This document shows, piece by piece, positions 15,805 to 47,533 of a stretch of 64,000 nt of DNA (its first letter is position 1; the number at the start of each line of letters is the position of its first letter). The notes below the pieces were generated by a model, which was not told the origin of the DNA, made no database searches, and saw only the letters and a list, made by a program, of their open reading frames with translations. The translations under genes were made by a program, and so were the position numbers. This DNA comes from Chloroflexota bacterium (GTDB lineage Bacteria; Chloroflexota; Limnocylindria; Limnocylindrales; CSP1-4): contig JALOOH010000005.1 in NCBI GenBank assembly GCA_025454515.1, forward strand, positions 84-64,083. The letters run 5' to 3'.

Positions 15805-17289
15805 CTACTGCTGCGGGAAGAAGGTCGAGACCGCGGTCATGATGTACACGAGCGCGGACTCCGCCTCGAGCGCCGGGTCGTCCGTCGGCCCGGTCGCCCA
15901 GATGACGACCGTGCCGGCGATCCCGACGTCGGCGAAGCACTGGAAGGCGGCTTCGCCGACCGGGAAGCCGGAGGCCTCGGTCAGGGCGGTCCCGCCGATG
16001 CACGTGAGGTTGACGCCGTTGACCTCGGCCTGCTGGCCCTCGGTCACGTCCCAGTTCGTGCGGTCCCAGGCTGCCGCGACCATGTCGTCATACGGTGTGG
16101 CGACGACATCGGCCATCACCGCCGCGTCGAGCGTGGTCGGGTCGCTCGGGACCGTGATCGGGGTGGGGTTGAAGTACCGGCACGCGAGGTCGGCCGGCTC
16201 GTCGAGCGTGTACCACGACGCCGGATAGACGATCTCCGCGACCTTCGGGCCGTCCGTGACCACGAGGTCGCAGGACGCCGTGGGCGGGAGGGTCGGCGGG
16301 ATGCTCGGCGGCGGCGTGGGGGCCACCGTCGGGCTCGGCGACGGCGTGGGTGTCGGGGTGGGGCTCGGCGTCGGCGACGGCGTCGGCGACGGGGTGGGAG
16401 TGGGGGATGGCGTCGGGCTCGGAGTGGGGCTCGGCGTCGGCGACGGCGTCGGGCTCGGCATCTCCGTGGGGACCGGTGCGATCGACGCGCCGGGCGTCGG
16501 GAACGCCCCGCTCCCGCCGTCGCTCTTCGGCCGCGTGAGGGCGACCTTCAAGGTGCCGTTCTCGTCGGTCAGGTTCAGGCTCAGGCCGCGGGACTCGACC
16601 CGCGACGCGCCCTGCAGCGCGGCGAGGAAGGCCTGCTCCTGGTCCATCACCGCCTGCTCGCATGCCATCCGCGTGGTGGTGAGCGGGCCGATCTGGACGA
16701 CGCTGCCGTTCGTCCCGTACGTGCCCCTGAAGGTGTTGCACCCGGAATCGCCGCCCACCGAGGTGATCGCGAAGGCGACGGTCAGGGGGGTGCCCTCGAT
16801 CGGCGCGGTGATGGTGCCGGGCGACGTCTCGAACGAGTCGACATCCCAGCGGCCGAGCAGCGGGTTGCGCGGCGCCGCGTCGTAGCCGAGGATCGGCTTG
16901 CCGTCGGCGTCGAAGACCGTCAGCGTGTTGTTGCGGACCGTGTAGAACCGACTCTCCTGGAGCAGCGTCAGGTACGCCTGCTCGAAGGCGTTCGTCGTCT
17001 CATCGCAGGCCATCATCGTGACCGTCGGCTGCGACACGAGGAGGGTCCGACCGCCGGCCTGGTAGAGCGCGTCGTACTGGTTGCAGCCGGATGTGCCGCT
17101 CACGCGGTCCGAGCCGAAGCGGGCGTCGGCGAACACGTTCGTCGGGACGAGCGTCATGAGCCCGCCCTGGTCGAACGACCGGACGACCCACTGGGTCCCC
17201 TCGAGCTGCCCGCCCGCGCCCGGCCCCGTCGAGCACGCAGCGACGACGAGCACGAGCGCGGCGAGCGCCGCGATCCGCCGGGTGATCAT
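15805..17289 (-). CDS. lipoprotein with two tandem META (HslJ-like, DUF306) domains, a Pro/Thr/Ser linker and a C-terminal domain
   Basis: RBS ggagga, then [22 protein letters not shown] is a lipobox. [11 protein letters not shown]...[11 protein letters not shown] and [10 protein letters not shown]...[11 protein letters not shown] are two META-domain signatures. Then (SPTP)n. The C-terminal ~170 aa contains conserved Cys residues. Confidence 0.75.
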
Positions 17290-19843: not shown

Positions 19844-20782
19844 ATGCTCGACGCCTTCCTGACCTCCGGCCTCTACGGGGTGGTCCTCGTCACCGGCCTC
19901 GCCCTTCTCCTGCACCTCCAGCTCGGGCTCGTCCGGATCGCGAACTTCGGCGTCGCCGGGTTCTTCGGCCTCGGGATGTACGTCTTCGGCGTCCTCTACG
20001 TGCAGGTGGACTGGCCGTTCGGGGAGCCGTGGCAGTTCTTCGTCTGCGCGATCGCCGCGACGATCGCCTCCGGGCTCGCGGGCATCCTCGTCGGGTGGCT
20101 CATCGCCGACCTCGACACGGACGGCGTCCTCGTCAGCACGCTCGGGTTCGCCACGGTCGTCGCGATCCTCGCGACGACCCAGGCGGACCTCACCGGCGGC
20201 GCGGAGGGGCTCGGCGGACTCTCGTTCCCGTTCGACATCGGGAAGACGAAGGAAAACGAGTTCCTCTGGCTCCTCATCACCGCTGCCGTCGTCGTCGCGA
20301 TCCTCGCGTACGTCTGGCAGGTCCACCGGACGCCCTACGGGCGCCTCCTCATCGGCATCGGCGGGAACGAGCCGCTCGCCCGGAGCCTGGGCAAGGCGTC
20401 GTACCGGACGAAGATCTGGCTCTTCTGCGTCGCGTCGGCGGGGATGGGCCTCCTCGGCGCCATGAACGCCGTCATGGTCCGGTTCCTCGATCCCGCGAAC
20501 ATCGGGATCGACATCACGCTCGCCGCGATGGTCGGCCTCATCCTCGGGGGCACGGCCCGCGCGTGGGGCGCGGTCGTCGGCGTCCTCCTCACCGTCGGCC
20601 TCTTCGACATCGTCATCCAGTTCTACCTGCCCCTCCCGAAGGACTGGTACAACCAGGCGATCCCCGTGCTGCGCGAGGCCGTCTTCGGCCTCACGCTCAT
20701 CGTCGTCCTCCTGTTCCGGCCGCTCGGCGTGCTCGGCGACATGCGCCGGGACCGGCTGCTGAGGAAGCTCCATGGCAAGTGA
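19844..20782 (+). CDS. branched-chain amino acid ABC transporter permease (LivM-like)
   Basis: Hydrophobic protein with the LivM family pattern. Immediately follows the LivH-like gene. Confidence 0.8.
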   Translation: MLDAFLTSGLYGVVLVTGLALLLHLQLGLVRIANFGVAGFFGLGMYVFGVLYVQVDWPFGEPWQFFVCAIAATIASGLAGILVGWLIADLDTDGVLVSTLGFATVVAILATTQADLTGGAEGLGGLSFPFDIGKTKENEFLWLLITAAVVVAILAYVWQVHRTPYGRLLIGIGGNEPLARSLGKASYRTKIWLFCVASAGMGLLGAMNAVMVRFLDPANIGIDITLAAMVGLILGGTARAWGAVVGVLLTVGLFDIVIQFYLPLPKDWYNQAIPVLREAVFGLTLIVVLLFRPLGVLGDMRRDRLLRKLHGK

Positions 20783-25827: not shown

Positions 25828-26550
25828 CTACTCCCAGCGGAACGTGCGTGCCGCGAGCAGCGCCGCCACGACCCCCCATGCCCCGAGGACGAGCAGCGGC
25901 GCGAGCGCGTCGCCGCTCCCCGTGAAGCCCGCGCGGAGCGCGTCGGTGAGAGCGCCGGACGGCAGGGCGCGCGCGACGGTCGCGAGCGGCTCCGGGAGCT
26001 TCGCGATCGGCAGGATGACGCCGCCGACCAGGAGGAACAGCACGAAGACCGCGTTGGCGATCGCGAGCGTCGCCTCGGGCCGCAGCGCCCCGGCGAGGAG
26101 GAGCCCCAGGCTCGCGAACGCGAAGGTGCCGATCACGACCGCGGCGGCGATCACGGCGGGGGCGATCGACGGGTCCGGCCGCCAGCCGAGCGCGAGCGCC
26201 GCGACGCCGACGAGGATCGCGACCCCGATGCCCTCGACCACGGCGACGGCCGCGACCTTCGCGGCGAGGAGCCCCGACCGCGGGAGCGGCGAGCCGCCGA
26301 GGCGCTTGAGGACGCCGTAGCCGCGCTCGAACGCGGTCGCGATCCCGAGATTGACGAAGGCCGTCGCCATGATGGCGAGGCCGACCGCTCCCGGGAGCAG
26401 GAAGTCCACCGCGCTCGGGCCTTCGGACGGCAGCACGGGTACGGACGCGAAGAAGACGAGGAGCGCGGCCGGCAGGACGAGGGTGACGAACAGGTTCTCC
26501 CCGCGACGGGCGGTGAGGCGGAGCTCCATCCCCGCCTGCGAGGCGACCAT
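25828..26550 (-). CDS. ABC-2 type transporter permease
   Basis: MVASQAGMELRLTARRGENLFVTLVLPA... with six TM helices. Follows the ATPase gene by 24 nt. Confidence 0.75.
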   Translation of the reverse strand: MVASQAGMELRLTARRGENLFVTLVLPAALLVFFASVPVLPSEGPSAVDFLLPGAVGLAIMATAFVNLGIATAFERGYGVLKRLGGSPLPRSGLLAAKVAAVAVVEGIGVAILVGVAALALGWRPDPSIAPAVIAAAVVIGTFAFASLGLLLAGALRPEATLAIANAVFVLFLLVGGVILPIAKLPEPLATVARALPSGALTDALRAGFTGSGDALAPLLVLGAWGVVAALLAARTFRWE

Positions 26551-26573
26551 CCGCGGGAGCGCGGCGGGGGAGC

Positions 26574-27653
26574 TCACCGCCGGCCACCGTCGATCGGGCC
26601 GGCCGGTGCGCCGTTCACAGCAGCGCCGGCCACGCGCGACGTCCCGCCGCCGGCCACGCGCGACGTCCCGCCGCCGGCCGCCCCGACGAGCTCGAGGAAC
26701 CGCTCCTCGAGGGTCCCGCCCGCGGCGCGCATCTCCACGAGGAGGAGGTCGCGGCCGCGGCACCAGTCGGCGAGCGCCGCGACGAGCCGCGGGGTCGGCT
26801 CGACGCCGTCCACGCGGTACGCGCCCCCCGGCCCATCCTCCTCGACCTGCGGCGCACCGCCCGTCGAGCCCATGGCCGCGAGTGCCCCGGCGAGCTCGAC
26901 GCGCCCGGCCGCCGAGAGCACGCCGGCCACGCGGAAGCGCAGCCGCCGCCGCGCGCCCGCCATCAGCTCGTCGGGGGTCCCGAGCGCGACGAGGCGTCCG
27001 CCGTCCACGATCGCGATCCGGTCCGCCAGGCGCTCGAGGTCGACCAGCTCGTGGGTCGTGAGCAGCACGCTCACCCCGGAGTCTCGGAGATCGGACACGA
27101 CATCCCGCGTGGCCGCCTTCGCCTGCGGATCCATCCCCGCGGTCGGCTCGTCGAGGATCGCGACCTCCGGCCGGCCCACCAGCGCGATCGCGAGCGCGAG
27201 GCGCTGGCGCTCGCCGCCGGAGAGGACCTTCACCCGGCGCATCGCGGCGTCCGTCAGCCCGACCCGCCCGAGGAGCGCGTCGGGGTCCTCCGGGTCGCGG
27301 AAGAACGAGGCGTAGAGGCGCAGGATCTCCCCGGCGCGCACCTGTGGTGGGAGGCCGCCCTGCTGGAGCATGATCCCGACCCGCGGCCGGAGCGCGCGCG
27401 CGTCACGGTACGGATCCAGCCCGAGCACCCGGACCGACCCGCCGTCGGGCCGCCGATACCCCTCGACGATCTCCACGGTCGTGGTCTTGCCAGCGCCGTT
27501 CGGGCCGAGGAGCCCCAGGATCTCGCCGCGGCCGACGTCGAGGCTCAGGCCGTCGACGACCGCGCGCCCGTCGTACCGCTTCACCAGGTCGCGAACGGCG
27601 ACCGCGACGCCCGCGCCGGACGCGCTCGCCGGGCCCCGGCCCGGCGACGTCAC
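26574..27653 (-). CDS. ABC transporter ATP-binding protein (DrrA/NosF-like, ABC-2 family) with repeat-containing C-terminal tail
   Basis: GTG start overlapping the tlpA-like stop (GTGA). Walker A GLLGPNGAGKTT, LSGGERQRLALA, ILDEPTAGMD. The C-terminus GGGTSRVAGGGTSRVAG is encoded by a 24-bp tandem duplication. Confidence 0.8.
   Translation of the reverse strand: MTSPGRGPASASGAGVAVAVRDLVKRYDGRAVVDGLSLDVGRGEILGLLGPNGAGKTTTVEIVEGYRRPDGGSVRVLGLDPYRDARALRPRVGIMLQQGGLPPQVRAGEILRLYASFFRDPEDPDALLGRVGLTDAAMRRVKVLSGGERQRLALAIALVGRPEVAILDEPTAGMDPQAKAATRDVVSDLRDSGVSVLLTTHELVDLERLADRIAIVDGGRLVALGTPDELMAGARRRLRFRVAGVLSAAGRVELAGALAAMGSTGGAPQVEEDGPGGAYRVDGVEPTPRLVAALADWCRGRDLLLVEMRAAGGTLEERFLELVGAAGGGTSRVAGGGTSRVAGAAVNGAPAGPIDGGRR
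26616..26670. repeat. 24-bp tandem direct repeat (2.3 copies) within the 3' end of the ABC ATPase gene
   Basis: cggccacgcgcgacgtcccgccgc repeated head-to-tail. Confidence 0.6.
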
Positions 27654-28228
27654 GGGAGGATCGTCCGGAGGTGGCGGTCGATCTGGTCGGCCGTCATCCC
27701 GCCGACCTGCATGCCCCGCACCACGCCGTCGGCGTCGATGAAGAAGGTCGTGGGGGGCGCGACGACCCGGTACGCCGCGGCGCCGACCCCGTCGGGATCC
27801 GCGAGCGACGTCCAGGTGGCGCCCTCCTTCGCCATGAAGTCCCTCGCCGGCGCGGGGTCGTCCTTGAAGAGGACCCCCAGGACGGTGAGGCCGTCGGCCG
27901 CGTGCGCGTCGGCCGCTGCCCTGAGCGCCGGGAACTCGTCGCGACAGGGCCCGCACCACGACGCCCAGTAGTTGAGCACGACGGGCCTTCCGCGGAAGTC
28001 GGCCAGCGAGACGGGCTTCCCGTCGAGGTCCGACAGCACCAGGTCCGGCGCGAGCGACCCCACGGTCGGCCCGACCGCGATGCTCGCGCCGGGTCCGCCC
28101 GCGCCGGACGAGGCGTCCGTCCCGGGCGTCGTCGACCCCTGCGTCGATGTGCCGCCGCCCGAGCAGCCGGCGACGACGGCCGCGAGCAGCAGCACAGCGG
28201 CCGCGCGCCGTGCGCGTCGAGAGGGCAC
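27650..28228 (-). CDS. TlpA/ResA-like thiol:disulfide oxidoreductase lipoprotein (thioredoxin fold)
   Basis: Lipobox LLAAVVAGCSGG. WASWCGPCR active site. Positioned inside the oxidase operon. Confidence 0.8.
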   Translation of the reverse strand: MPSRRARRAAAVLLLAAVVAGCSGGGTSTQGSTTPGTDASSGAGGPGASIAVGPTVGSLAPDLVLSDLDGKPVSLADFRGRPVVLNYWASWCGPCRDEFPALRAAADAHAADGLTVLGVLFKDDPAPARDFMAKEGATWTSLADPDGVGAAAYRVVAPPTTFFIDADGVVRGMQVGGMTADQIDRHLRTILP

Positions 28229-28241
28229 GGAGAGACGCTCC

Positions 28242-28706
28242 TTACTGGACGGTGAGCGTCCCGACCATGTTCGGGTGCACCGTGCAGACGAACGCGTAGG
28301 TGCCGGCCGGGAGAGCCGGGACAGCGTAGTCCTTCTGGGCGACGCCGGTGAAGATCTCGCCCATGAAGACGACCTCGCCGGTCGGCGAGCCCTTGTGGAT
28401 CGCCACGTTGTGCGGGATCCCCGCGTCCTGGTTGTCGAACGAGATCGTGAACGGGGCGTCCGCGGGCGCCGTGATCTCAGAGACGTCGAACGCGATGTTG
28501 AGCGCGACGATCTTGATCACGGGTCCCGACGGGGAGCCGCCTCCGCCGCCGGGCGCGGTCGTCGTGCCGGCGCCGTCTCCCGTCCCCGGCGTGCCGGCCG
28601 GCGCGGAGGTCGCGTCCGTCCCGCCGCCGGGCGCCGCGGTGGATGGCGCGCCGCCGCCCCCCGCCGTCCCGCCCCCGCTGCCGGGCGGGAAGGCGCCCGT
28701 GCCCAC
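28242..28706 (-). CDS. type-1 blue-copper (amicyanin-like cupredoxin) domain protein; probably the C-terminal domain of the upstream membrane protein, separated by a frameshift
   Basis: GTG start. Gly-rich linker, then PVIKIVALNIAFDVSEITAPADAPFTISFDNQDAGIPHNVAIHKG...YAFVCTVHPNMVGTLTVQ with His, Cys-x2-His-x2-Met copper ligands. No signal peptide or TM of its own. About 80% nucleotide identity to the 3' end of ctaC. Confidence 0.65.
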   Translation of the reverse strand: MGTGAFPPGSGGGTAGGGGAPSTAAPGGGTDATSAPAGTPGTGDGAGTTTAPGGGGGSPSGPVIKIVALNIAFDVSEITAPADAPFTISFDNQDAGIPHNVAIHKGSPTGEVVFMGEIFTGVAQKDYAVPALPAGTYAFVCTVHPNMVGTLTVQ

Positions 28707-29451
28707 GCGTGATCCACGGGAATCGCGGAGCCGGCGGGTTCTCCAGGTGCCCCGTGCGGTCGGCCCTCACGGCGAGCCGGTACTCGACGACCGCGTCGCG
28801 CAACCACTGGATGCCGACCACGGCGATCATCACCAGGCCGGCCACGAGGATCGGCAGGCCGACGTCGCCGTAGTCCTCGACGATCTGCTGGTTGGTCGCC
28901 AGGCCGAGGCCCAGGAACAACACCGTGGCCGCCACGGCGATGAGCAGCGGGCGGAACGACGGCCCCGGGATGTGGACGCCCGCGGGCGGCTCCTTCGCGT
29001 CGAACGACCCGGCGACCACGCCCCGGCCGGCAGGGCGCCCGGATTCGCGCATGACCTCGCGACCCCAGTAGAGGCCCGCGCCGATCGTGAGCAGCACGCC
29101 CAGGGCGAAGATCCACGGCCCGAGGTCCCGCAGCGGGATCGCATCGAGCACGAGGATGCTCGGGTCGGCGTTCATCGCGGCCAGGCCCAGGAAGAGCACC
29201 GTCGCAGCGCCCGCGAGGTAGAGCGGCGAGAGGCTGGGCCCCGGCATGTGGAGGCCCTCGGGCGTCCGCGGCACGACGGGCCCACCGCGCGTCCGCGGGC
29301 CGGCGGTGGCGAACCGGACGGCGATCCAGCCCACGTAGAGCGCGACGACGCCGAGGAGCGCGACGGGGATGAGCCCGACGAGCGCCCCCCAGTCGGGCGA
29401 GACGAGCCGCCCGAGGTAGTCGTTGACGATCGTGTCCCAGAGGTTCGTCAT
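28477..29451 (-). CDS. membrane protein with internal duplication (2x [H-(M/I)-PGPS + TM helix]); likely membrane anchor of the cupredoxin above
   Basis: MTNLWDTIVNDYLGRLVSPDWGALVGLIPVALLGVVALYVGWIAV...EGLHMPGPSLSPLYLAGAATVLFLGLAA...AGVHIPGPSFRPLLIAVAATVLFLGLGL...IQWLRDAVVEYRLAVRADRTGHLENPPAPRFPWITR. After about 28710 the frame becomes Arg-rich nonsense. It runs 230 nt into the cupredoxin ORF before a stop, so the 3' end is uncertain. Confidence 0.55.
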   Translation of the reverse strand: MTNLWDTIVNDYLGRLVSPDWGALVGLIPVALLGVVALYVGWIAVRFATAGPRTRGGPVVPRTPEGLHMPGPSLSPLYLAGAATVLFLGLAAMNADPSILVLDAIPLRDLGPWIFALGVLLTIGAGLYWGREVMRESGRPAGRGVVAGSFDAKEPPAGVHIPGPSFRPLLIAVAATVLFLGLGLATNQQIVEDYGDVGLPILVAGLVMIAVVGIQWLRDAVVEYRLAVRADRTGHLENPPAPRFPWITRGHGRLPARQRGRDGGGRRRAIHRGARRRDGRDLRAGRHAGDGRRRRHDDRARRRRRLPVGTRDQDRRAQHRVRRL

Positions 29452-29511: not shown

Positions 29512-29679
29512 TCAGCCCTTCGGCGAGCCGAGAGCGAGCGTATACGAAAGCAGGCCCATCCCGATGGCGAGCGCGACGAGCATCGTCGTGCCGCCGGCAT
29601 CCTGGCTGAGCGCGTAGTAGATCGTCGCGATCGCGAGGAACAGGACCGCGACGAGGAGCGTGGTGCGGGGTCGGATCAC
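29512..29679 (-). CDS. 55-aa single-TM protein, candidate small (subunit IV-like) oxidase subunit
   Basis: RBS ggagg, 9-nt spacer, GTG. VIRPRTTLLVAVLFLAIATIYYALSQDAGGTTMLVALAIGMGLLSYTLALGSPKG. Lies between ctaE and the anchor gene. Confidence 0.5.
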   Translation of the reverse strand: MIRPRTTLLVAVLFLAIATIYYALSQDAGGTTMLVALAIGMGLLSYTLALGSPKG

Positions 29680-29696: not shown

Positions 29697-30341
29697 CTAG
29701 TTGAGGATGTACAGGAGGGTGAACAGGCAGATCCAGACCACGTCCACGAAGTGCCAGTAGAGGCTCGTGGCCTCGACCGCGTCGTGGTGGCGGCCCGAGA
29801 ACTGCCCGGCCATGCCGCGATACAGGATCACGCCGAGCATGAGGACGCCGGCGAACACGTGGGCGCCGTGGAAGCCCGTGAGCGTGTAGAACGTGGAGCC
29901 GAAGACGCCGTCGTTCACCCCGAAGCCCAGCTGCGAGTAGTCGTACAGCTGGCCCGCGAGGAACAGGATCCCGAGGACGATCGTGATCGTGAAGGCCCGC
30001 ATGAGGCCCTTGCGGTCTCCGCGCCGGATCGCCCAGATGCCGATCTGGCACGTGACGGAGCTCAGGATCAGCATGAGCGTGAGGACGGCCGGCAGCGCGA
30101 TGTGCGCCCGCAGGTCGAACTCGGCGTTCCCGGCCGGCGGCCACACCGGGGCGTTCGCGCGGAGGCTGAAGTACGCCGCGAAGAGCCCGGCGAAGAACAT
30201 CACCTCGGACGCGATGAACAGGATCATCCCGAGGACGGGGTTGCTGATCCCGCCCTTGGCGTGCTCCTCCGCGATGTGGACGAGCTCCTCCAGCGTCTCG
30301 CCGCGGTCGGCGGGGACGAGGACGTCGGCGCTTGCGGTCAC
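29697..30341 (-). CDS. ctaE: cytochrome c oxidase subunit III
   Basis: Full-length match to the COX3 family (GMILFIASEVMFFAGLF...FYTLTGFHGAHVFAGV...SLYWHFVDVVW). Confidence 0.9.
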   Translation of the reverse strand: MTASADVLVPADRGETLEELVHIAEEHAKGGISNPVLGMILFIASEVMFFAGLFAAYFSLRANAPVWPPAGNAEFDLRAHIALPAVLTLMLILSSVTCQIGIWAIRRGDRKGLMRAFTITIVLGILFLAGQLYDYSQLGFGVNDGVFGSTFYTLTGFHGAHVFAGVLMLGVILYRGMAGQFSGRHHDAVEATSLYWHFVDVVWICLFTLLYILN

Positions 30342-30356: not shown

Positions 30357-31988
30357 TCAGTGGCCTGCCGCCGGGCCGGGCAGCCCGTGGCGCTGGTCGA
30401 ACACCGGGCGCTCCGAGCGGATCTCGGGGAGCCGGTCGAAGTTGTACGGCGGGGGCGGGCTGGTGGTCGCCCACTCGAGCGTGTTCCCCTCCCAGGGATC
30501 GTCGCCGGCCCGCTCGCCGCTGCGGAGCGAGACGAAGACGTTCCAGAGGAACGGCAGGACGGAGACCCCGACGAGGATGCTGCCGATGGTCGCGACGAGG
30601 TTCAGGTCGTTCCACCCGGCCATCGGGCTGTAGTCCGCGATCCGCCGGGGCATGCCGGCGACGCCCAGCTCGTGCATCGGGAAGAACGTCAGGTTGAACC
30701 CGATGAACATGATGACGAACTGGAGCTTGCCCAGACCCTCGTTCAGCTTGACGCCGAACATCTTGGGGAACCAGTAGAAGAGCCCGCCGAAGACCGCGAA
30801 CACCGACCCGCCGAAGAGGACGTAGTGGATGTGGGCCACGATCCAGTACGTGTCGTGGATCGCGAAGTCGACGGGCACCGACGCGCTGAACGCGCCGTTG
30901 ATGCCGCCGATGAGGAACATCGTCAGGAAGCCCAGGACGAAGAGCATCGCCGAGCTGAACTGGATGCTTCCCTTCCACATCGTCGCGATCCAGTTGAACA
31001 TCTTCACGCCCGTGGGGACGGCGATGAGGAACGTCATGAAGCTGAAGAACGGCAGGTAGACCGACCCGGTCGTGAACATGTGGTGCGCCCAGACGGAGAA
31101 CCCGAGCGCGCCGATCGCGGCCGTCGCGAAGACGAACGCCTTGTAGCCGAACAGGGGCTTCCGGCTGAACACCGGGATGATCTCGCTGACGATCCCCATC
31201 GCGGGCAGGATCATGATGTAGACGGCCGGGTGCGAGTAGAACCAGAACACGTTCTGCCAGAGCACCGCGCTGCCGCCGCTCGCCGGGTCGAAGAACGCGC
31301 CGCCGTAGTTCCGGTCGATGAACAGCATGATGAGCGCGCTCGTCAGGACCGGCGTCCCGAGGACCACCAGGACGCTCGTCACGAGGACGGTCCAGACGAG
31401 GATGGGCAGCCGGAACATCGTCATCCCCGGAGCCCGCATCTTGAAGATCGTCACGAGGAAGTTGATGCCGCCGAGGATCGAGCTCGTGCCGATGAGGATG
31501 AGGCCGACGATCCAGAGGTCGGTGCCCACGCCGGGCGAGTACTTGGAGTTCGCGAGCGGGCTGTAGCTCGTCCAGCCCTCTGCCGCCGCGCCGCCCAGGA
31601 CGAAGCCCAGCATCATGATGACGCCGGCCAGGGGGAGCAGCCAGAAGCTCAGGGCGTTGATGCGCGGGAAGGCCATGTCCGGCGCGCCGATCATGAGCGG
31701 GACGACGTAGTTGCCGAACCCGGCCAGCATCGGGATGACGAACAGGAAGAGCATCACCGACGCGTGCATGGTGAAGAACTGGTTGTACGCCGACTCGCCC
31801 ATGTACTGCAGGCCCGGCTGTGCGAGCTCCGCGCGGACGAGGAGGGCGAGGATGCCACCGACGAGGAAGAACAGGAACGAGCTGGCGAGGTAGAGGATCC
31901 CGATCTTCTTGTGGTCGGTGGTCGTGAGCCAGTCGTAGAGGCCGGAGCGGGCGCGGGCGGTGCTCGGCGTGAGGACGGTGGTCGCCAT
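30357..31988 (-). CDS. ctaD: cytochrome c oxidase subunit I (heme-copper oxidase, A-type)
   Basis: 543 aa. Canonical COX1 sequence (WLTTTDHKKIGILY, GGGDP-like region, HHMF, VAHFHYV). Confidence 0.95.
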   Translation of the reverse strand: MATTVLTPSTARARSGLYDWLTTTDHKKIGILYLASSFLFFLVGGILALLVRAELAQPGLQYMGESAYNQFFTMHASVMLFLFVIPMLAGFGNYVVPLMIGAPDMAFPRINALSFWLLPLAGVIMMLGFVLGGAAAEGWTSYSPLANSKYSPGVGTDLWIVGLILIGTSSILGGINFLVTIFKMRAPGMTMFRLPILVWTVLVTSVLVVLGTPVLTSALIMLFIDRNYGGAFFDPASGGSAVLWQNVFWFYSHPAVYIMILPAMGIVSEIIPVFSRKPLFGYKAFVFATAAIGALGFSVWAHHMFTTGSVYLPFFSFMTFLIAVPTGVKMFNWIATMWKGSIQFSSAMLFVLGFLTMFLIGGINGAFSASVPVDFAIHDTYWIVAHIHYVLFGGSVFAVFGGLFYWFPKMFGVKLNEGLGKLQFVIMFIGFNLTFFPMHELGVAGMPRRIADYSPMAGWNDLNLVATIGSILVGVSVLPFLWNVFVSLRSGERAGDDPWEGNTLEWATTSPPPPYNFDRLPEIRSERPVFDQRHGLPGPAAGH

Positions 31989-31997: not shown

Positions 31998-32290
31998 TTA
32001 CTGGACCGTCAGCGTGCCGGTCATGTTCGGGTGCACCGTGCACACGAACGCGTACGTGCCGGCCGGGAGCGCCGGGACGTCGTAGACCTTGGTGGCGACG
32101 CCGGGGAAGATCTCGCCGGCGAACACCTCCTCGCCGGTCGGCGAGTCCTTGCGGATCGCCACGTCGTGCGGGATGCCGTTGTCGTTGTTCACGAAGGTCA
32201 GGGCGATCGGCGCCCCCGCCGGGGCGGACAGCTCCGACGTGTCGTAGGCGATGTTCTGGGCCGTGAGCTGCAGGGCGACCGGCTGGACCG
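31998..32290. repeat. ~290-bp dispersed repeat: the cupredoxin-encoding 3' end of ctaC is ~80% identical to 28242-28535
   Basis: Direct nucleotide comparison of the two segments, for example ttactggac(c/g)gt(c/g)agcgt(g/c)cc(g/c)g(t/a)ccatgttcgggtgcaccgtgca(c/g)acgaacgcgta(c/g)gtgccggccgggag... Confidence 0.7.
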
Positions 32291-33107
32291 CGCCGCCCCC
32301 ACCGCCCGCGTCCCCGCTCGCGGATGGGGCCGGCGTGAGGGACGGGGCCGGGGTGGGCGTCGCCTGCGCCTGCGCGACCCAGGCGTCGAAGTCCTGCTGC
32401 GTCACGACGCGCACCTTGAAGAGCATCTTCGAGTGGAGCAGGCCGCAGAACTGCGTGCAGTGCCCGTCGAAGACGCCCGTCTCGGTCGCCTTGAAGTCGA
32501 AGACGTTCGTCTTGCCAGGGATCACGTCGCGCTTGAACAGGAACGCGGGCACGTAGAAGCCGTGGTTGACGTCGCGGCTCTCGAGCTTGACCTGGACGGT
32601 CTCGTTCACCGGCACGACGAGCTCGGGCTCCTTGTCCGGCAGGCCGATGAGGGTCACGCCCTGGTCCGGGTACGTGAACTGCCACTGCCACTGGAAGCCG
32701 GTGACGTCGATCCGCAGCTTCGGGTTCGCCGAGACGGCGTCCACCGTGTTGAGGGTCTGCCAGGAGATCACGAAGAGGACCGCGACGATCACGACCGGGA
32801 TGGCCGTCCAGATGACCTCGAGGACGTTGTTCCCGTGGATCTGGGGCGGCAGCGAGTCATCGCCCTTGCGCCGGCGATACCGGATCGCCGCATAGACGAT
32901 GAGGGCTTCGACGAAGAAGAAGATCACGACGCCGACGATGAAGACGACCTGGTAGAGCCACTCCGTGGCCTTGCCCTGCTCGGTCGCTGCCGGCGGCGGC
33001 TGGAGCACGCTCACCCCGGTCCCGCACGCCGCCACGAGCAGCATCGCGATCGCGGCCAGCGCGGCGATCGATGCCCCTCGCGGGATCCCCTTGGCGATCC
33101 TCGTCAT
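31998..33107 (-). CDS. ctaC: cytochrome c oxidase subunit II with fused C-terminal type-1 blue-copper (amicyanin-like) domain
   Basis: RBS aggag, then ATG at 33107. Lipobox/TM, COX2 TM hairpin, CuA centre VNHGFYVPAF...HCTQFCGLLHSKM. Then linker QAQATPTPAPSLTPAPSASGDAGGGGG and an extra cupredoxin domain ending YAFVCTVHPNMTGTLTVQ. Confidence 0.85.
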   Translation of the reverse strand: MTRIAKGIPRGASIAALAAIAMLLVAACGTGVSVLQPPPAATEQGKATEWLYQVVFIVGVVIFFFVEALIVYAAIRYRRRKGDDSLPPQIHGNNVLEVIWTAIPVVIVAVLFVISWQTLNTVDAVSANPKLRIDVTGFQWQWQFTYPDQGVTLIGLPDKEPELVVPVNETVQVKLESRDVNHGFYVPAFLFKRDVIPGKTNVFDFKATETGVFDGHCTQFCGLLHSKMLFKVRVVTQQDFDAWVAQAQATPTPAPSLTPAPSASGDAGGGGGAVQPVALQLTAQNIAYDTSELSAPAGAPIALTFVNNDNGIPHDVAIRKDSPTGEEVFAGEIFPGVATKVYDVPALPAGTYAFVCTVHPNMTGTLTVQ

Positions 33108-33342
33108 CCCGAGCCCTCGACTCCTCTCTCCGCGTCCGTCCGGGGCGAGCGAGGAAGCAGGGGGCACTTCCCGGCCGGCCGTCTGGGGACAAGACGGCGG
33201 AGATGATACGGGAAAAGCCGGCGACAGGACAGAGGTCATCTGCAGGGGGGCCATTCGGCCCGGTCCCAGGGTCCTGATGGGGTGTGTCCACGCTCGGACG
33301 CCGGGCCGCGCAGCCGCCCCGGCCGCCCGTCGCGCGCGGTCG

Positions 33343-35316: not shown

Positions 35317-36003
35317 GTGCGTCAGACCAGCCCCACCCCGACACGGCGATCCGCGCCCCCGCCGGCCTCCGCATCGACCCGGCACGCGGCGTCGCCGCGG
35401 GCTGGCCTGAGGGTCGCCTCCATCCTCTCGGCCGCGGCCGCGACGGTCGCCGTCACCGCGGTCATGCTCGCCGGCTGCGCGGCCGGCCCCACGCCGCCGA
35501 CGCCACCGATCTCCCCGGGCACGGCGACGAGCCCGCGCGAGGTGAACGTCATCCTGAAGGACTACCAGTACATCCCCGACGGCCTCGATCTCGTGCCGGG
35601 AGAGACGGTCCTCTTCCACTTCGTGAACGGCGGGCTGGCGGTCCACGAGGCGATCATCGGCGACATGGCCACACAGGAGGCCTGGGAGGAGGCGGAGGCC
35701 CTCCACGCCGACCCGCCGCCCGGGCCGACGCCGGTCGTCACGGTGCCCGTCGGCCTGGAGGGGTTCCGCGTGGTCGTCGAGTCGGGCGAGCGCAAGGACG
35801 TGCGCTGGACCGTGCCGACCGAGATCCCATCGCCGCTCATCCTCGGGTGCCACATCCCCGGTCACTGGGCCCGTGGGATGCAGGCCCCGATCCGGCTGGT
35901 CGTCGCGGGGCAGAGCCCGGCGACCGTCACGTCCACGCCGTCGCCCCGGGCCGCCGGCACGCCCGCGCCGATCGCGACGACGGCGCCGCCGGACGTGCCG
36001 TAG
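35317..36003 (+). CDS. plastocyanin/azurin-like blue-copper lipoprotein
   Basis: Lipobox [10 protein letters not shown]. Cupredoxin ligands H...[13 protein letters not shown] (Cys-x2-His-x4-Met). Pro/Thr-rich N- and C-terminal linkers. Confidence 0.7.
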
Positions 36004-36127: not shown

Positions 36128-36415
36128 GTGACCTACGTGATCGCCGAGCCGTGCGTCGACGTGATGGACCAGGCGTGCGTCTCGGTCTGCCCGGTCGATT
36201 GCATCCACTTCGAGGAGGGCGTGGACCGCTCGCTCTTCATCGACCCGGACGAGTGCATCGATTGCGGCGCGTGCGAGCCCGAGTGCCCCGTGAACGCGAT
36301 CTTCCCGCAGGAGTCGCTCCCGCCCGAGTGGGCCGGGTACACGCAGATCAATGCGGTCTGGTTCTCCGACCGCGCCGAGGCCCGCGCGCTGGTGGACGCG
36401 GCCAAGCCCGCCTGA
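36128..36415 (+). CDS. fdxA: 7Fe ferredoxin ([3Fe-4S][4Fe-4S])
   Basis: RBS ggagga, then [34 protein letters not shown]...[13 protein letters not shown], collinear with actinobacterial FdxA. Confidence 0.85.
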
Positions 36416-36506: not shown

Positions 36507-37451
36507 ATGACGGCGCTCTCCGGCCGCACGATCGCCACCGTGGGCTCCGGGGTCATGGCCGAGGCCATGATCGCGGGGCTCATCCGCGACGGGCTCGTGA
36601 CCCCCGACCGCGTCGTCGCGAGCCATCCGCGGCCCGAGCGCCGCCGAGAGCTCGAGACGGCCCACGGGATCCGGACCGTCGCGAGGAATGTCGAGGCCGT
36701 CCGCGGCGCGGACATCGTCCTGCTGGCGATCAAGCCGCAGATGCTCGCGAAGGTCGGACGGGAGGTCGCGCCGGCGCTCGACGACGCGCAGCTCGTCCTG
36801 TCGGTGATCGCCGGCGCCACGACGCGGGCGCTGACCGGGATCCTGGACCATCCCCGCGTCGTCCGCGCGATGCCGAACACGCCGGCCCAGATCGGGCGAG
36901 GGGTCACCGTCTGGTACGCGACGCCCGACGTCACCGTCGATCAGCGGCGCCAGACCGCAGCGATCCTCCGGGCGCTCGGCTCGCAGATCGAGGTGGACGA
37001 CGAGAAGCTCGTCGCCATGGCGACGGCCGTCTCCGGGACGGGGCCCACGTATGTCTTCCTCGTGATGGAGGCGCTCATCGATGCCGCCGTCCACCTCGGC
37101 TTCGCCCGCCACGTGGCCCACGACCTCGTCGTGGAGACCCTCGAGGGCAGCACCCTCTTCGCGAAGCAGAGCGCGATGCACCCGGCGATGCTCCGGAACA
37201 TGGTGACGTCGCCGGGGGGCACGAGCGCCGCTGCGCTCCACGAGCTGGAGGCCGGCCGCCTTCGGACCGTGCTCTCCGAGGCGGTCTGGGCCGCGTTCGG
37301 GCGGACGCAGGAGCTCGGCGACCAGCTGGAGGCGAGCCTGGCCCCCGCCCCCGAGGCCACGACCACGTCGGCCACGGCCACGCCGGCCGCGGTCCGACGG
37401 AAGGCCGCGCCCCCGCCGTCGCGGCAGCGCGCGCGGGGACCACGGGCATGA
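36507..37451 (+). CDS. proC: pyrroline-5-carboxylate reductase
   Basis: N-terminal Rossmann motif IATVGSGVMAEAMIAGL. ProC C-terminal dimerisation domain (AVSGTGPTYVFLVMEAL). Extended Ala/Pro-rich tail. Confidence 0.85.
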   Translation: MTALSGRTIATVGSGVMAEAMIAGLIRDGLVTPDRVVASHPRPERRRELETAHGIRTVARNVEAVRGADIVLLAIKPQMLAKVGREVAPALDDAQLVLSVIAGATTRALTGILDHPRVVRAMPNTPAQIGRGVTVWYATPDVTVDQRRQTAAILRALGSQIEVDDEKLVAMATAVSGTGPTYVFLVMEALIDAAVHLGFARHVAHDLVVETLEGSTLFAKQSAMHPAMLRNMVTSPGGTSAAALHELEAGRLRTVLSEAVWAAFGRTQELGDQLEASLAPAPEATTTSATATPAAVRRKAAPPPSRQRARGPRA

Positions 37452-40441: not shown

Positions 40442-41413
40442 ATGTCGTCGGTCCAGACCCGTGAGGTCCCGGAGCACCTGCTCCGCTCGCTCCTGCTCGC
40501 GCTCTCCCATCAGCGCGCCCTGGGCGAGGCCGCGGTGCGCATCCCGCTGACCCGCCCGATGGTCGGTCGCTTCGTCGCCGGGCAGTCGCTCCCGGAGGCG
40601 CTGGACGTGCTCGAGCGGGTCCGGGACGACGGGTTCGACACCACCGTGGACGTCCTGGGCGAGTCGGTCTCGTCCGTGGAGGCCGCGGATGCGGCCGCGG
40701 GTCGATACCTCGAGACGCTCGACGCCCTGGCGGCTCGCGGCCTCGAGCGCAACGTCAGCCTGAAGCTCACCCAGATGGGCCTCGACATCGGCCACGACGT
40801 GGCCCGGGAGAACGTCGGCCGGATCCTCCGCACGGCGGCCCAGCTCGACGCCTTCGTCCGGATCGACATGGAGGACCACACGAAGACGGACGCGACGCTC
40901 GCCTTCTGGCGCGAGGTCCGGCCCATCCACCCGGCGACCGGCGTCGTGCTCCAGTCGGCGCTCCGGCGGAGCGAGCAGGACGTGGACGCGATCAGCGCCG
41001 AGCGTGGTCGCGTGCGCCTGTGCAAGGGTGCGTACAACGAGCCCGCGTCGGTCGCCTACCCGGACAAGGAGGACGTGGACCGCGCGTACGCGCGGATCGC
41101 GGAGAAGCTCCTGCTCCACGGTGTCCACCCGGCGTTCGCGACGCACGACACGAGGATGATCAACCACGTCGTGCGCTTCGCCCGCGAGCACCGGATCGAC
41201 CGGGACCGCTTCGAGTTCCAGATGCTCTACGGCGTGCGCCGCGACCTCCAGGACCGGCTCGCGCGCGCGGGCTACCGCGTCCGGCTGTACGTCCCGTACG
41301 GCACGCAGTGGTACCCGTACTACATGCGGCGCCTCGCGGAGCGGCCCGCGAACGTCCTGTTCATGCTCCGGGCGATGACGCGCGAGGGGTTCGGGCGGGA
41401 CGGAGAGGGCTGA
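40442..41413 (+). CDS. proline dehydrogenase (monofunctional PutA-like)
   Basis: RBS aggagg, then ATG. TIM-barrel ProDH motifs (VDVLGE, RIDMEDH, LQSALRRS, RLCKGAY). Confidence 0.85.
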   Translation: MSSVQTREVPEHLLRSLLLALSHQRALGEAAVRIPLTRPMVGRFVAGQSLPEALDVLERVRDDGFDTTVDVLGESVSSVEAADAAAGRYLETLDALAARGLERNVSLKLTQMGLDIGHDVARENVGRILRTAAQLDAFVRIDMEDHTKTDATLAFWREVRPIHPATGVVLQSALRRSEQDVDAISAERGRVRLCKGAYNEPASVAYPDKEDVDRAYARIAEKLLLHGVHPAFATHDTRMINHVVRFAREHRIDRDRFEFQMLYGVRRDLQDRLARAGYRVRLYVPYGTQWYPYYMRRLAERPANVLFMLRAMTREGFGRDGEG

Positions 41414-44449: not shown

Positions 44450-44610
44450 GGCCACCGAGCCTAGCAAGGCCGAGGGCGCGCGACAGGGCGATGGCGCTCC
44501 GTCTTCCTCCGTTGGAGGTACTCTGTCGGGGTCGGCCCGCGGCGCTCCTGATCCCGCGCCGCGCCCGGCCGCGCCCGCCGTCGAGCGGAGCCAGGAGGAC
44601 CGGAGCGCAG

Positions 44611-46473
44611 GTGTCCACCACAGACCCCACCACCGAGCACGAGGTCGAGATCCAGGAGCTGGATCGCGTCACGGTCCGCTTCGCCGGCGATTCCGGCGAC
44701 GGGATGCAGGTGACCGGCAGCCAGTTCTCCCAGAGCACGGCCGTCTTCGGCAACGACCTGAGCACCCTCCCCGACTACCCGGCGGAGATCCGCGCCCCGG
44801 CAGGCTCGCTGACGGGCGTCTCGGGCTTCCAGATCAGCTTCAGCTCGAGCCCGATCTACACCCCGGGCGACGCGCCCGACGTGCTCGTCGCGATGAACCC
44901 CGCCGCGCTCAAGCGGAACATCGGCGACCTCGTCGCCGGCGGCGCGGTGATCGTGAACGGGGACGCCTTCACGCCGAACAACCTGGCGAAGGCCGGCTAC
45001 GCGAACAACCCGCTCACGGACGGCTCGCTCAAGGGCTACAACGTCCACGAGATCCCGATCACGACCCTGAACGCCCGCGCGCTCGAGGGTCTCGACATGA
45101 CGCCCAAGCAGGTCGACCTGACGAAGAACTTCTTCGCGCTCGGCGTCATGTTCTGGCTTTTCGAGCGGAGCATGGAGCCCACGCTCGAGTGGCTCGAGGA
45201 GAAGTACGCGAAGCGCCCCGTCTTCATCGAGGCCAACAAGCGCGCCCTCATGGCCGGCTACGCGTTCGGCGAGACGACGGAGATCTTCCACACCCACTAC
45301 CGCGTCGCCCCCGCGAAGCTCGCGCCCGGGACCTACCGGAACATCACCGGCAACGAGGCGACCGCGCTCGGCTTCCTCACCGCGTCGCAGCTCGCGGAGC
45401 GGAACCTCTTCTACAGCAGCTACCCGATCACCCCAGCGAGCGAGATCCTCCAGCAGCTCGCCGAGTACAAGAACTTCGGCGTGAAGACGCTCCAGGCCGA
45501 GGACGAGATCGCCGCGATCGGCGCCGCGATCGGCGCGAGCTACGGGGGTGGCCTCGGGCTCACGGGTACCTCCGGCCCGGGCATGGCCCTCAAGTCGGAG
45601 ATGGTCGGGCTCGCCGTCATCACGGAGATCCCGCTCGTCATCGTGAACGTCCAGCGCGCGGGACCGTCGACCGGGATGCCCACCAAGACCGAGCAGGCGG
45701 ACCTGTTCCAGGCCGTCTTCGGCCGGAACGGCGACGCGCCGGTCCCCGTCGTGGCCCCGGCGAGCCCCGGCGAGTGCTTCGCCTACGCCATCGAGGCGTG
45801 GCGCCTCGCCATCCGCCACATGACGCCGGTCGTCTACCTCTCGGACGCGTTCCTCGCGACGGGCTCGGAGCCGTGGCGGATCCCCGAGCTGGATGAGCTG
45901 CCGGACCTCCGCGCCCCCGACCACACCGAGCTCGAGGGCTGGCACCCGTACGTCCGTGACCCCGAGACCCTCGCGCGGCCGTGGGTCGTCCCCGGCACGC
46001 CGGGCCTGGAGCATCGGATCGGCGGCCTCGAGAAGCTCGACGTCCTCGGGACCGTGAGCTACGACCCGGACAACCACCACCGGATGTCGCTGCTCCGCGC
46101 CGAGAAGATCGCCCGCATCGCGAACGACATCCCGCCGCTGGAGGTGTTCGGTCCGCCCGAGGGCGAGCTGCTCATCCTGGGGTGGGGGTCGTCGTTCGGC
46201 GCCATCCGGAGCGCGGTCGAGCGGCTCCAGGCGCGCGGGAAGTCGGTCGCCCACGCGCATCTGCGGCACCTGAACCCGTTCCCGTCGAACACCGGCGACG
46301 TCGTCCGCGCCTACAGGCAGGTGCTCGTCCCCGAGGTGAACATGGGACAGCTCCTGTTCCTCATCCGCGGCACGTACCTCGTGGACGCGATGGGGTTCAA
46401 CCTGGTCCGCGGCAAGCCGTTCCAGATCAGCGAGATCCAGATGAAGGCCGAGCAGCTGCTCGGCGACCTGTGA
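44611..46473 (+). CDS. korA: 2-oxoglutarate/2-oxoacid:ferredoxin oxidoreductase subunit alpha
   Basis: RBS aggagg, then GTG. Fused gamma-alpha domains (FAGDSGDGMQVTG...), typical actinobacterial KorA. Confidence 0.9.
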   Translation: MSTTDPTTEHEVEIQELDRVTVRFAGDSGDGMQVTGSQFSQSTAVFGNDLSTLPDYPAEIRAPAGSLTGVSGFQISFSSSPIYTPGDAPDVLVAMNPAALKRNIGDLVAGGAVIVNGDAFTPNNLAKAGYANNPLTDGSLKGYNVHEIPITTLNARALEGLDMTPKQVDLTKNFFALGVMFWLFERSMEPTLEWLEEKYAKRPVFIEANKRALMAGYAFGETTEIFHTHYRVAPAKLAPGTYRNITGNEATALGFLTASQLAERNLFYSSYPITPASEILQQLAEYKNFGVKTLQAEDEIAAIGAAIGASYGGGLGLTGTSGPGMALKSEMVGLAVITEIPLVIVNVQRAGPSTGMPTKTEQADLFQAVFGRNGDAPVPVVAPASPGECFAYAIEAWRLAIRHMTPVVYLSDAFLATGSEPWRIPELDELPDLRAPDHTELEGWHPYVRDPETLARPWVVPGTPGLEHRIGGLEKLDVLGTVSYDPDNHHRMSLLRAEKIARIANDIPPLEVFGPPEGELLILGWGSSFGAIRSAVERLQARGKSVAHAHLRHLNPFPSNTGDVVRAYRQVLVPEVNMGQLLFLIRGTYLVDAMGFNLVRGKPFQISEIQMKAEQLLGDL

Positions 46474-46483
46474 GGCCGGAGCG

Positions 46484-47533
46484 ATGACGGACCAGCAGAC
46501 CCCGGCCGCCGCGCCCGCCGGCGAGCCCATCCTCCTGACGAAGAAGGACTTCGTCTCCGACGTCGACCCGCGCTGGTGCCCCGGCTGCGGCGACTACTCG
46601 ATCCTCGCCCAGGCCCAGAAGGCCATGCCGGATTTCGGCTACAGGCGGGAGGACATCGTCTTCATCTCCGGGATCGGGTGCTCCGGCCGGTTCCCGTACT
46701 ACATGAACACGTACGGCTTCCACAGCATCCACGGCCGCGCGCCCACGCTCGCCACCGGGCTGAAGGCCTCGCGCCCCGAGCTCATGGTGTGGGTCATCAC
46801 CGGCGACGGCGATGCGCTGTCGATCGGCGGCAACCACATCCTCCACTCGATGCGGAAGAACGTCGACATCAAGGTCGTCATGTTCAACAACCGCATCTAC
46901 GGCCTCACGAAGGGCCAGGTCTCGCCGACCTCCGACTTCGGTCAGAAGACCAAGACGACGCCCGGCGGGTCGGTCAACTACCCGATCCACCCGCTCGTGG
47001 TGGCGCTCGCCGCCGAGGCGAGCTTCGTCGCCCGCTCCGTGGACACCTTCCCCGATCACCTGCAGGAGACGATCTCGCGGGCGGGGCACCACAAGGGCTC
47101 GACCTTCGTCGAGGTCCTCCAGAACTGCAACATCTTCAACGACGGCGCCCACCGCGAGTTCACCGACAAGGAGGTCCGGGACGACCGGATGATCTTCCTG
47201 CGGCACGGCGAGCCGATGATCTTCGGGAAGGACCGCGACCGGGGCATCCGCCTCAACGGCGTCCGCCCCGAGGTGGTCCGGCTGGGCGACGGGATCACCG
47301 AGGAGGACCTGCTCGTCCACGACGAGACGTCCGAGGACCCCACGATCCACTTCATGCTCGGCCGGATTTACTGGCCCGAGTTCCCCGTGCCGGTGGGCGT
47401 CATCCGCAACGTCTCCCGCACCACGCACGACGCCCTTCTGCAGGGGCAGGTGGACGAGGCCATCCGCCGCGAGGGCCGGGGCGACCTGCGGACCGCCCTC
47501 GGCGGCGGCGAGACGTGGACCGTCGGGGGCTGA
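46484..47533 (+). CDS. korB: 2-oxoglutarate/2-oxoacid:ferredoxin oxidoreductase subunit beta
   Basis: TPP-binding and [4Fe-4S] motif WCPGCGDY...GIGCSGR, GDGD. Confidence 0.9.
   Translation: MTDQQTPAAAPAGEPILLTKKDFVSDVDPRWCPGCGDYSILAQAQKAMPDFGYRREDIVFISGIGCSGRFPYYMNTYGFHSIHGRAPTLATGLKASRPELMVWVITGDGDALSIGGNHILHSMRKNVDIKVVMFNNRIYGLTKGQVSPTSDFGQKTKTTPGGSVNYPIHPLVVALAAEASFVARSVDTFPDHLQETISRAGHHKGSTFVEVLQNCNIFNDGAHREFTDKEVRDDRMIFLRHGEPMIFGKDRDRGIRLNGVRPEVVRLGDGITEEDLLVHDETSEDPTIHFMLGRIYWPEFPVPVGVIRNVSRTTHDALLQGQVDEAIRREGRGDLRTALGGGETWTVGG

Follow-up and report, generated by a model that had tools for sequence, protein, structure and literature searches.

Blue-copper donors to heme-copper oxidases are already known, namely auracyanin, halocyanin and sulfocyanin. 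Halocyanin donates to the ba3 oxidase, and fusions between halocyanin and subunit IIa occur (PMC3128077). In Chloroflexus, alternative complex III (ACIII) serves as menaquinol:auracyanin oxidoreductase, and a role in respiration was proposed for auracyanin B; the auracyanin-like gene Caur_2581 adjoins Caur_2582, the gene for subunit II of cytochrome c oxidase (COX) (PMC3150298). Here we analyzed a stretch of 64,000 nt (64 kb) from contig JALOOH010000005.1 of a Chloroflexota bacterium belonging to the class Limnocylindria (in the following called the window; G+C content ~73%). Its gene ctaC encodes a heme-copper oxidase subunit II that carries a cupredoxin domain at the C-terminus.

Among the uncultured bacteria of soil and freshwater, the Limnocylindria (Ellin6529) rank with the most abundant, and genome surveys score their enzyme as "coxABC cytochrome c oxidase". 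Papers on the class name the genes only as coxABC or as "cytochrome c terminal oxidase" (bioRxiv 10.1101/2021.08.23.457424, bioRxiv 10.1101/2020.12.21.419267). We directly established the domain architecture of the CtaC protein, the conservation of its ligands and of the operon, the distribution across the lineage and the local absence of cytochrome c. Judged from these sequences, the operon probably encodes an A-family, A2-type aa3 oxidase whose subunit II bears its own tethered type-1 copper carrier as the electron entry to CuA, replacing the cytochrome c domain of caa3 enzymes.

Subunit II with a C-terminal cupredoxin domain

The ctaC reading frame begins with an ATG at position 33107, and its homologs start at the same position. 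Pfam models matched above their cut-offs throughout: COX2_TM at residues 38-116, COX2 at 160-233 (e-value 3.6e-17), Cupredoxin_1 (PF13473) at 279-368 (e-value 6.9e-15, 55.4 bits with a cut-off of 27) and Copper-bind (PF00127; 28.1 bits, cut-off 21.2). The N-terminal 250 residues are covered by the NCBIfam model CoxB (TIGR02866) with 195 bits and a cut-off of 147.7. With respect to the actinobacterial aa3 CtaC model NF050117, the protein scored 231.9 below a cut-off of 250, which places it as a close relative outside of this family; CtaD (743, cut-off 880) and CtaE (170.8, cut-off 190) came similarly near to the actinobacterial NCBIfam models.

Two transmembrane (TM) helices, a cupredoxin-fold domain, the CuA ligands and the presence of ctaD and ctaE alongside identify the protein as a subunit II. 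Checked by translation, the complete CuA site reads H182...C217-T-Q-F-C221-G-L-L-H225-S-K-M228, and the type-1 site consists of H314 in the motif IPHDV together with C356-T-V-H359-P-N-M362. Across 17 aligned sequences, which reach down to ~50% identity, none of the nine CuA and type-1 ligand residues varies. The sequence 'LLVAACG' makes CtaC a probable lipoprotein.

A caa3 subunit II is characterized by a C-terminal cytochrome c domain; CtaC has the cupredoxin there, and it contains neither a CxxCH motif nor a match to Cytochrom_C. Fold models above cut-off, an all-beta domain and the combination of a His with Cys-xn-His-xn-Met ligands are the marks of a blue-copper protein, and the site is predicted to be occupied by copper. 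Compared with solved structures, the fused domain matched amicyanin best (PDB 1id2, e-value 4e-7), with the ligands aligned at identical spacing. We rejected an assignment as an amicyanin ortholog (TIGR02657, 33.6 bits, cut-off 110.2), and no mau genes were seen among the parts of the window scanned with Pfam. Auracyanin has a C-x4-H-x4-M loop. The fused domain is not of this type, having a C-x2-H-x2-M loop and a marginal, partial match to 2aan (e-value 0.0012). Among the fused domains of other genomes, 70 of 73 have a Cys-x2-His-x2-5-Met loop, and the three without the standard loop belong to truncated or frameshifted assemblies or have a longer loop.

A preliminary description of this DNA had reported a CuA subunit II joined by a Pro/Thr/Gly linker to an amicyanin-like cupredoxin with four type-1 ligands. 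The Pfam search of the C-terminal domain, with both cupredoxin models above cut-off, and the alignment, which puts His, Cys, His and Met onto the amicyanin ligands, bear this out, and the quoted motifs were located as stated.

We ran AlphaFold2 (AF2) on CtaC with the 17-sequence alignment. The prediction contains two confident domains (block values of the predicted local distance difference test, pLDDT, mostly 84-96) separated by a linker in which residues 251-273 have pLDDT values <50. The linker spans ~30 residues and differs in length among homologs. Searching the PDB with Foldseek, we found the Thermus caa3 subunit II (2yev_B, e-value 1e-19) as the first match to the CoxB part; in this search no solved chain spanned both domains (TMq at most 0.52).

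To describe the distribution of the fusion, we searched 5.8 billion proteins and took the best 120 matches. All 120, with 88% to 47% identity, share the architecture PF02790+PF00116+PF13473. In their source annotations the fused homologs are plain "cytochrome c oxidase subunit II" or "subunit 2", the cupredoxin being unmentioned, and the NCBI entries with organism names among these 120 are Candidatus Limnocylindrales. We furthermore assembled a set of 83 loci (numbered with the prefix L), 80 obtained by scanning a single genome for each GTDB species and three fetched separately, and found the fused cupredoxin in 74 of them. The fusion loci are nearly all metagenome-assembled genomes (MAGs) labeled Chloroflexota, Limnocylindria or "Chloroflexia"; four are labeled Actinomycetota/Mycobacteriales (L064, L067, L069 and L071). 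The closest species representative shares only 60% identity with the CtaC of the window. In a HMMER search of 1.84 billion cluster representatives, several dozen 50%-identity clusters matched over the full length, down to ~34% identity.

The fusion is therefore the standard CtaC of the class Limnocylindria and no oddity of one window, and its recurrence across loci and clusters argues that it is under long-term selection. We found no description of a CoxB-cupredoxin fusion in the literature, which is weak evidence as subscription journals were mostly outside the coverage. The earlier statement that this is not a standard, described architecture agrees with the literature covered but not with the lineage. 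The concept of a blue-copper donor to a heme-copper oxidase is established.

We scanned the window and the 83 loci for CxxCH, for the Rieske motif (CxHxGC...CxCH) and for the CcsA motif (WGxxWxWD). As noted before for the credible proteins of the window, CxxCH is present in none of its 58 coding-like open reading frames (ORFs), and among the 20 genes that flank the operon, Pfam revealed no bc, ACIII or cytochrome c families. Within ±10 kb of ctaC, the motif scan of ~70 fusion genomes yielded no credible CxxCH or Rieske protein; four single motif matches in fusion loci were two DksA zinc fingers and two ORFs in the wrong frame. As a positive control, all non-fusion loci from Actinomycetota/Acidimicrobiia (L072-L082) have a CxxCH and/or Rieske protein beside the oxidase genes, six of them both. 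The fusion coincides with the lack of adjacent qcrC and Rieske genes, whereas the non-fusion actinobacterial loci keep them. This absence of cytochrome c is a local, not a genome-wide, statement. The preliminary description had named a common lineage variant with an adjacent cytochrome c as one case that would speak against its proposal; the variant is common, but an adjacent cytochrome c was not found.

The oxidase operon and related cupredoxins

Directly downstream of ctaC follow ctaD and ctaE (Table 1), an order kept in 76-82 loci. The helix VI motif of CtaD is WFYSHPAVY in place of GHPEV, which assigns this subunit I to the A2 type; the 'YSHPAV' signature is typical of caa3 enzymes. Across the fusion loci, the motif scan distinguished 54 A2-type and 19 A1-type subunits I. 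The extended gene order, kept in ~50 loci, is dksA, a gene for a pyridoxal phosphate-dependent dehydratase, ctaG on the opposite strand, ctaC with its cupredoxin, ctaD, ctaE, the gene of a 55-aa protein, the gene of a 5-TM protein with a cupredoxin, tlpA and the genes of an ABC-2 ATPase and a permease.

Table 1 Features of the oxidase operon and neighboring copper-protein genes in the window.
Feature	Position	Strand	Evidence
ctaC, heme-copper oxidase subunit II with C-terminal cupredoxin, 369 aa	31998..33107	-	Pfam and NCBIfam matches
CtaC TM helices, n=2 (residues 38-116)	32760..32996	-	COX2_TM, e-value 6e-13; AF2 helices 43-76, 94-122
CtaC periplasmic CuA domain (residues 125-246)	32370..32735	-	COX2 domain; best Foldseek match 2yev_B
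CuA ligand segment H182...C217-x3-C221-x3-H225-x2-M228	32424..32564	-	translation; invariance in 17-sequence alignment
CtaC linker, flexible, Pro/Thr/Ala/Ser/Gly-rich (residues 247-276)	32280..32369	-	AQATPTPAPSLTPAPSASGDAGGGGGAVQP; pLDDT; variable length
Amicyanin-like type-1 copper cupredoxin domain of CtaC (residues 277-369)	32001..32279	-	Pfam; amicyanin alignment; ligands; pLDDT 84-93
Type-1 ligand codons	32166-32168 (H314); 32022-32042 (C356-x2-H359-x2-M362)	-	
ctaD, subunit I, A2-type	30357..31988	-	COX1, e-value 3e-162; TIGR02891, 725 bits (cut-off 670.75)
ctaE, subunit III	29697..30341	-	COX3, e-value 3e-43
55-aa two-helix small subunit, conserved 3' of ctaE	29512..29679	-	gene calls in relatives; faint Cyt_c_ox_IV match
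CtaF-like 5-TM protein with cupredoxin, disrupted	28242..29451	-	intact orthologs; tblastn in two frames; DNA alignment to L083
TlpA/ResA-like membrane-anchored thiol:disulfide oxidoreductase (WCGPC)	27650..28228	-	AhpC-TSA, Redoxin; ResA/TlpA families below cut-off
ABC-2 (DrrAB-like) ATPase and permease, 3' of tlpA	25828..27653	-	synteny in ~50 loci
Candidate third copper protein, lipoprotein-like (MLAGC lipobox)	35317..36003	+	sub-threshold cupredoxin match

The gene of the small subunit is called with 55-59 aa in L001, L002, L083 and L092. Intact orthologs of the 5-TM protein with its cupredoxin are encoded by single genes of 393-411 aa in the same four loci. The protein shows a weak match to the actinobacterial subunit IV (Cyt_c_ox_IV, PF12270; 28.5 bits in L002) and a C-terminal Cupredoxin_1 domain. 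This second cupredoxin, located on a CtaF-like membrane protein within the oxidase operon in ~50 loci, is paralogous to the one fused to CtaC (70% identical in the window, median 56% within genomes). Concerted evolution of both domains was mostly rejected: the best match was a domain of the same type elsewhere in 74 of 90 cases and the paralog of the own genome in 12 of 90. The 5-TM protein may be a member of the oxidase complex.

In the window, this gene lacks 38 nt compared to the intact 411-aa ortholog of L083, a locus whose CtaC is 87% identical to that of the window. The junctions are at 28707/28708 and 28697/28698; with the missing nucleotides goes the fifth TM helix (LGVFALLLVGAIVIGS), a frameshift results, and the cupredoxin ORF 28242-28706 has neither signal nor anchor. 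The gap is either the mark of a pseudogene or an assembly error. In L066 (10748-12562) and L076 (10866-12740), the frame of the ctaC cupredoxin runs into ctaD or shifts, which suggests indel errors in those assemblies and calls for caution with the 38-nt gap.

The tlpA gene lies directly after the cupredoxin gene in ~60 loci, and its product likely keeps the cysteines of the copper sites reduced. Further downstream, the C-terminus of the ABC-2 ATPase contains a tandem 'GGGTSRVAG-GGTSRVAG' duplication. On the other side of the operon, a Caa3_CtaG gene was found in 76 of the 83 loci, mostly divergent and upstream of ctaC (e.g., L002 8744-9871 and L092 1793-2839); it is missing upstream of ctaC in the window (33108-33342) and in the closest relatives L001, L059, L070 and L083.

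Two further cupredoxins had been placed within 4 kb of ctaC in the preliminary description. One of them (28242-28706) was rejected as a separate soluble cupredoxin: it has no signal peptide and represents the 3' part of the broken 5-TM gene. The other (35317-36003) gave matches below threshold, with Cupredoxin_1 at an e-value of 0.0045 (17.4 bits, cut-off 27) and with a CopI-like model at 44.8 bits (cut-off 280); it has a plausible lipobox, a C-x4-H-x4-M loop and weak similarity to a nitrite reductase in the type-1 copper region. This ORF is syntenic in 27 related loci (tblastn) and adjoins the gene of an FdxA-type ferredoxin (36128-36415). Its product may be a third copper protein, with an uncertain place in the oxidase system.

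The ferredoxin and KorAB had also been brought into connection with electron entry. We discarded both as parts of the oxidase system, as an FdxA-type ferredoxin and a 2-oxoacid:ferredoxin oxidoreductase are cytoplasmic and unrelated to it. The KorAB-type genes (44512-47533, +), a proline dehydrogenase gene (40442-41413, +) and a pyrroline-5-carboxylate reductase gene (36507-37451, +) belong to ordinary cytoplasmic metabolism. Elsewhere in the window, an ORF at 15805-17289 (-) encodes two domains joined by a long low-complexity linker of the form (PTPS)n.

Used by itself as the query, the cupredoxin domain detected proteins of ~165 aa with 63-76% identity, some of them annotated as "plastocyanin". 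These free cupredoxins share the CTVHPNM loop of the fused domain and are equipped with a lipobox-containing signal peptide and a linker of ~40-55 residues rich in Pro/Ala/Ser. Such stand-alone lipoproteins of ~160-170 aa are encoded in L087, L088, L089, L090 and L091 (~10001-10500 or 20001-20492), with two in tandem in L088. Their context is conserved and non-respiratory, with a gene for a major facilitator superfamily transporter upstream and an AlaX-like tRNA_SAD gene downstream; glutamine synthetase genes also occur. The lineage uses one cupredoxin type in three tethering modes, by a lipid anchor, on the CtaF-like subunit and in fusion with the CuA subunit.

Other arrangements were found as well (proteins numbered with the prefix P). 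P0239 (L084 1128-2777) combines CoxB, a cytochrome c domain (CLACH) and a cupredoxin, and P0160 is a CoxB protein with two cupredoxins. The triple-cupredoxin gene of P0204 (L086 1293-2636) lies between the genes for Caa3_CtaG and TlpA in a cox cluster, and this cluster is near a CtaA-CtaB fusion and nuo genes. P0196 also belongs to these architectures, which include proteins with three tandem cupredoxins. Such arrangements look like electron wires rather than chaperones.

Electron entry and the place of cytochrome c

Architecture, conservation and analogy suggest the following direction and partners of electron transfer. A quinol-oxidizing complex encoded elsewhere, possibly containing heme c, would reduce membrane-tethered cupredoxins. 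Three kinds of carrier would take part: the free lipoproteins of the cupredoxin type, the copy borne by the CtaF-like 5-TM subunit and the domain fused to CtaC. The fused domain would swing on its linker of ~30 residues onto the CuA domain, and electrons would pass from the type-1 copper to CuA, heme a, the heme a3-CuB site and finally O2. The TlpA-like reductase, together with CtaG in relatives, would serve the assembly of the copper sites. The envelope of the class was inferred to be monoderm from gene content (bioRxiv 10.1101/2021.08.23.457424), and tethered carriers would suit the lineage because there is then no outer membrane to retain soluble ones. Blue-copper entry is the most economical and best reading, and it is reinforced by the second cupredoxin tethered to the oxidase and by the free lipoprotein cupredoxins.

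Several observations weigh against blue-copper entry. Structure prediction, proposed earlier as a check, delivered the two confident domains but no reliable docking of the cupredoxin on CuA, the linker having pLDDT values <50. The second cupredoxin gene is broken in the window and is therefore dispensable or misassembled there. The upstream reductant of the oxidase was found neither in the window nor in any ±10 kb neighborhood scanned, and the class is without a cultured representative. Finally, given the presence of ResB in relatives, a c-type cytochrome and not a cupredoxin may be the physiological donor to CuA.

In one relative, a ResB gene (P0429), the operon with the ctaC-cupredoxin fusion (P0024) and a lipoprotein cupredoxin lie on the same contig (ERZ25039554 contig_6594, 356,862 bp). 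ResB is encoded in L091 (10001-11458) and L092 (3001-4173), both from this contig, and in L090 (1-1003) at the end of a stand-alone cupredoxin locus. The gene shares 4 nt with the 3' end of an aminotransferase gene. Orthologs of ResB, found in at least 120 cluster representatives, are 55-100% identical. Beside ResB, no ResC/CcsA motif or gene was found. ResB has no known role outside the synthesis of c-type cytochromes (System II), which makes it most probable that the class has retained some c-type cytochrome. Probably, c-type cytochromes exist upstream, for example in the quinol-oxidizing complex. Of the blue-copper relay without cytochrome c suggested in the preliminary description, the relay stands as the best reading and the absence of cytochrome c as a local finding, qualified by ResB in a relative.

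In another reading, CuA would in truth receive its electrons from a cytochrome c encoded elsewhere, such as a heme c subunit of an ACIII- or bc-type complex. The role left to the fused cupredoxin would be that of an auxiliary branch point, which could take up electrons from other periplasmic donors or share them with copper enzymes such as NirK. The conserved ResB on the 357-kb contig of the fusion operon and the existence of P0239, with both a cytochrome c and a cupredoxin domain behind CoxB, agree with such a donor, as does the report of nirK in Ellin6529 MAGs (bioRxiv 10.1101/2020.12.21.419267). However, no cytochrome c gene lies near the ~70 fusion operons although the non-fusion relatives keep qcrC adjacent, the cupredoxin sits exactly where caa3 enzymes have their cytochrome c domain, and no ResC/CcsA gene was seen beside ResB. 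We consider this explanation unlikely.

The opposite extreme is a periplasmic chain entirely free of cytochrome c, as in some archaea, in which a quinol oxidase of the Rieske/cytochrome b type or another one lacking heme c would reduce only cupredoxins. The complete lack of credible CxxCH proteins in the 64-kb window and in ~1.4 Mb of fusion-locus neighborhoods is consistent with this, and so are the three tethering modes for one cupredoxin family. Yet the conservation of ResB at 55-100% identity in at least 120 cluster representatives, and its location on one contig with the fusion, make such a chain improbable.

There is very little chance that, instead of being a redox carrier, the C-terminal domain handles copper as a chaperone or store during the assembly of CuA or CuB. 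Such a function would agree with the neighboring TlpA gene, with the Caa3_CtaG gene of relatives and with the existence of cupredoxin-fold chaperones such as PCuAC (PMC9145763), but the domain has the classical His-Cys-His-Met set in an amicyanin loop, not the H(M)x10Mx21HxM motif of PCuAC, and it recurs in stand-alone lipoproteins and tandem arrays as is typical of electron wires. That the fusion is an artefact of assembly or gene calling joining neighboring genes, an idea to which the frameshifts in the MAG loci L066 and L076 and the broken neighboring gene in the window might lend themselves, is refuted by the same unbroken ORF in independent sequences of metagenomes and MAGs, which number in the thousands and come from several sources and assemblers, and can practically be dismissed.

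If the built-in blue-copper domain feeds the oxidase, aerobic respiration in this class would be more copper-dependent than assumed, and the label "cytochrome c oxidase" would be functionally misleading for the whole class. The protein would also offer a natural pair of type-1 copper and CuA on a single polypeptide for the study of copper-to-copper electron transfer. Going further, and quite unlikely on the present sequences, the periplasmic network of Limnocylindria might be built on one family of tethered amicyanin-like cupredoxins, with an oxidase fed by copper only and never by cytochrome c, in the strongest form without any c-type cytochrome. If true, this copper-only network would be to bacteria what the halocyanin and sulfocyanin systems are to archaea and would contain a natural enzyme for intramolecular electron transfer from type-1 copper to CuA.

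Comparison with known systems

The caa3 oxidases (Thermus thermophilus 2yev, Rhodothermus, Bacillus) resemble the system described here in belonging to the A-family with a mostly A2-type subunit I and in having a subunit II composed of two TM helices, a CuA domain and a tethered one-electron carrier. Here, a type-1 cupredoxin without CxxCH stands in for the heme c domain as the carrier, and separate genes encode subunits I and III. The caa3 solution, a carrier fused to subunit II, would have arisen once more, now with another cofactor. Amicyanin of Paracoccus (1id2, 1aac) is the best sequence match and has the identical His...Cys-x2-His-x2-Met spacing. Unlike the tethered domain, it is soluble and carries electrons between methylamine dehydrogenase and cytochrome c551i.

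The haloarchaeal system of halocyanin and ba3 oxidase is similar to the one proposed here in that a blue-copper protein feeds the heme-copper oxidase and occurs fused to one of its subunits (PMC3128077). Those fusions belong to archaeal B-family enzymes with a single-helix subunit IIa, and halocyanin is located N-terminal to the helix; here, the oxidase is bacterial and of the A-family, and the cupredoxin is on the C-terminus of the CuA subunit itself. In the related lineage of Chloroflexus and Roseiflexus, a tethered type-1 carrier was proposed between quinol oxidoreductase and oxidase in the ACIII-auracyanin-aa3 chain (PMC3150298, PMC7439408). Auracyanin, however, is a separate protein, whereas the domain in Limnocylindria is fused and has the short C-x2-H-x2-M loop, and no ACIII was found near the operons. 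In the SoxM supercomplex of Sulfolobus with sulfocyanin (SoxE) and the sulfocyanin-oxidase association of Ferroplasma, a cupredoxin bridges the quinol-oxidizing module and the CuA subunit inside a single membrane assembly (PMC10654088). These systems are archaeal, their cupredoxin is a separate subunit and Rieske and cytochrome b genes are part of the cluster, while the cluster described here has none.

With the actinobacterial bcc-aa3 supercomplex (CtaC, CtaF, QcrC), the system shares the CtaF-like subunit and tethered carriers as expected for a monoderm. The di-heme carrier QcrC, encoded there beside ctaE, is absent here, and cupredoxins are found on the oxidase side instead. Limnocylindria differ from the known systems in the partner of the cupredoxin, which is attached C-terminally to the CuA subunit of a bacterial A-family oxidase, in the amicyanin-type loop and in a second carrier on a subunit-IV-like protein.

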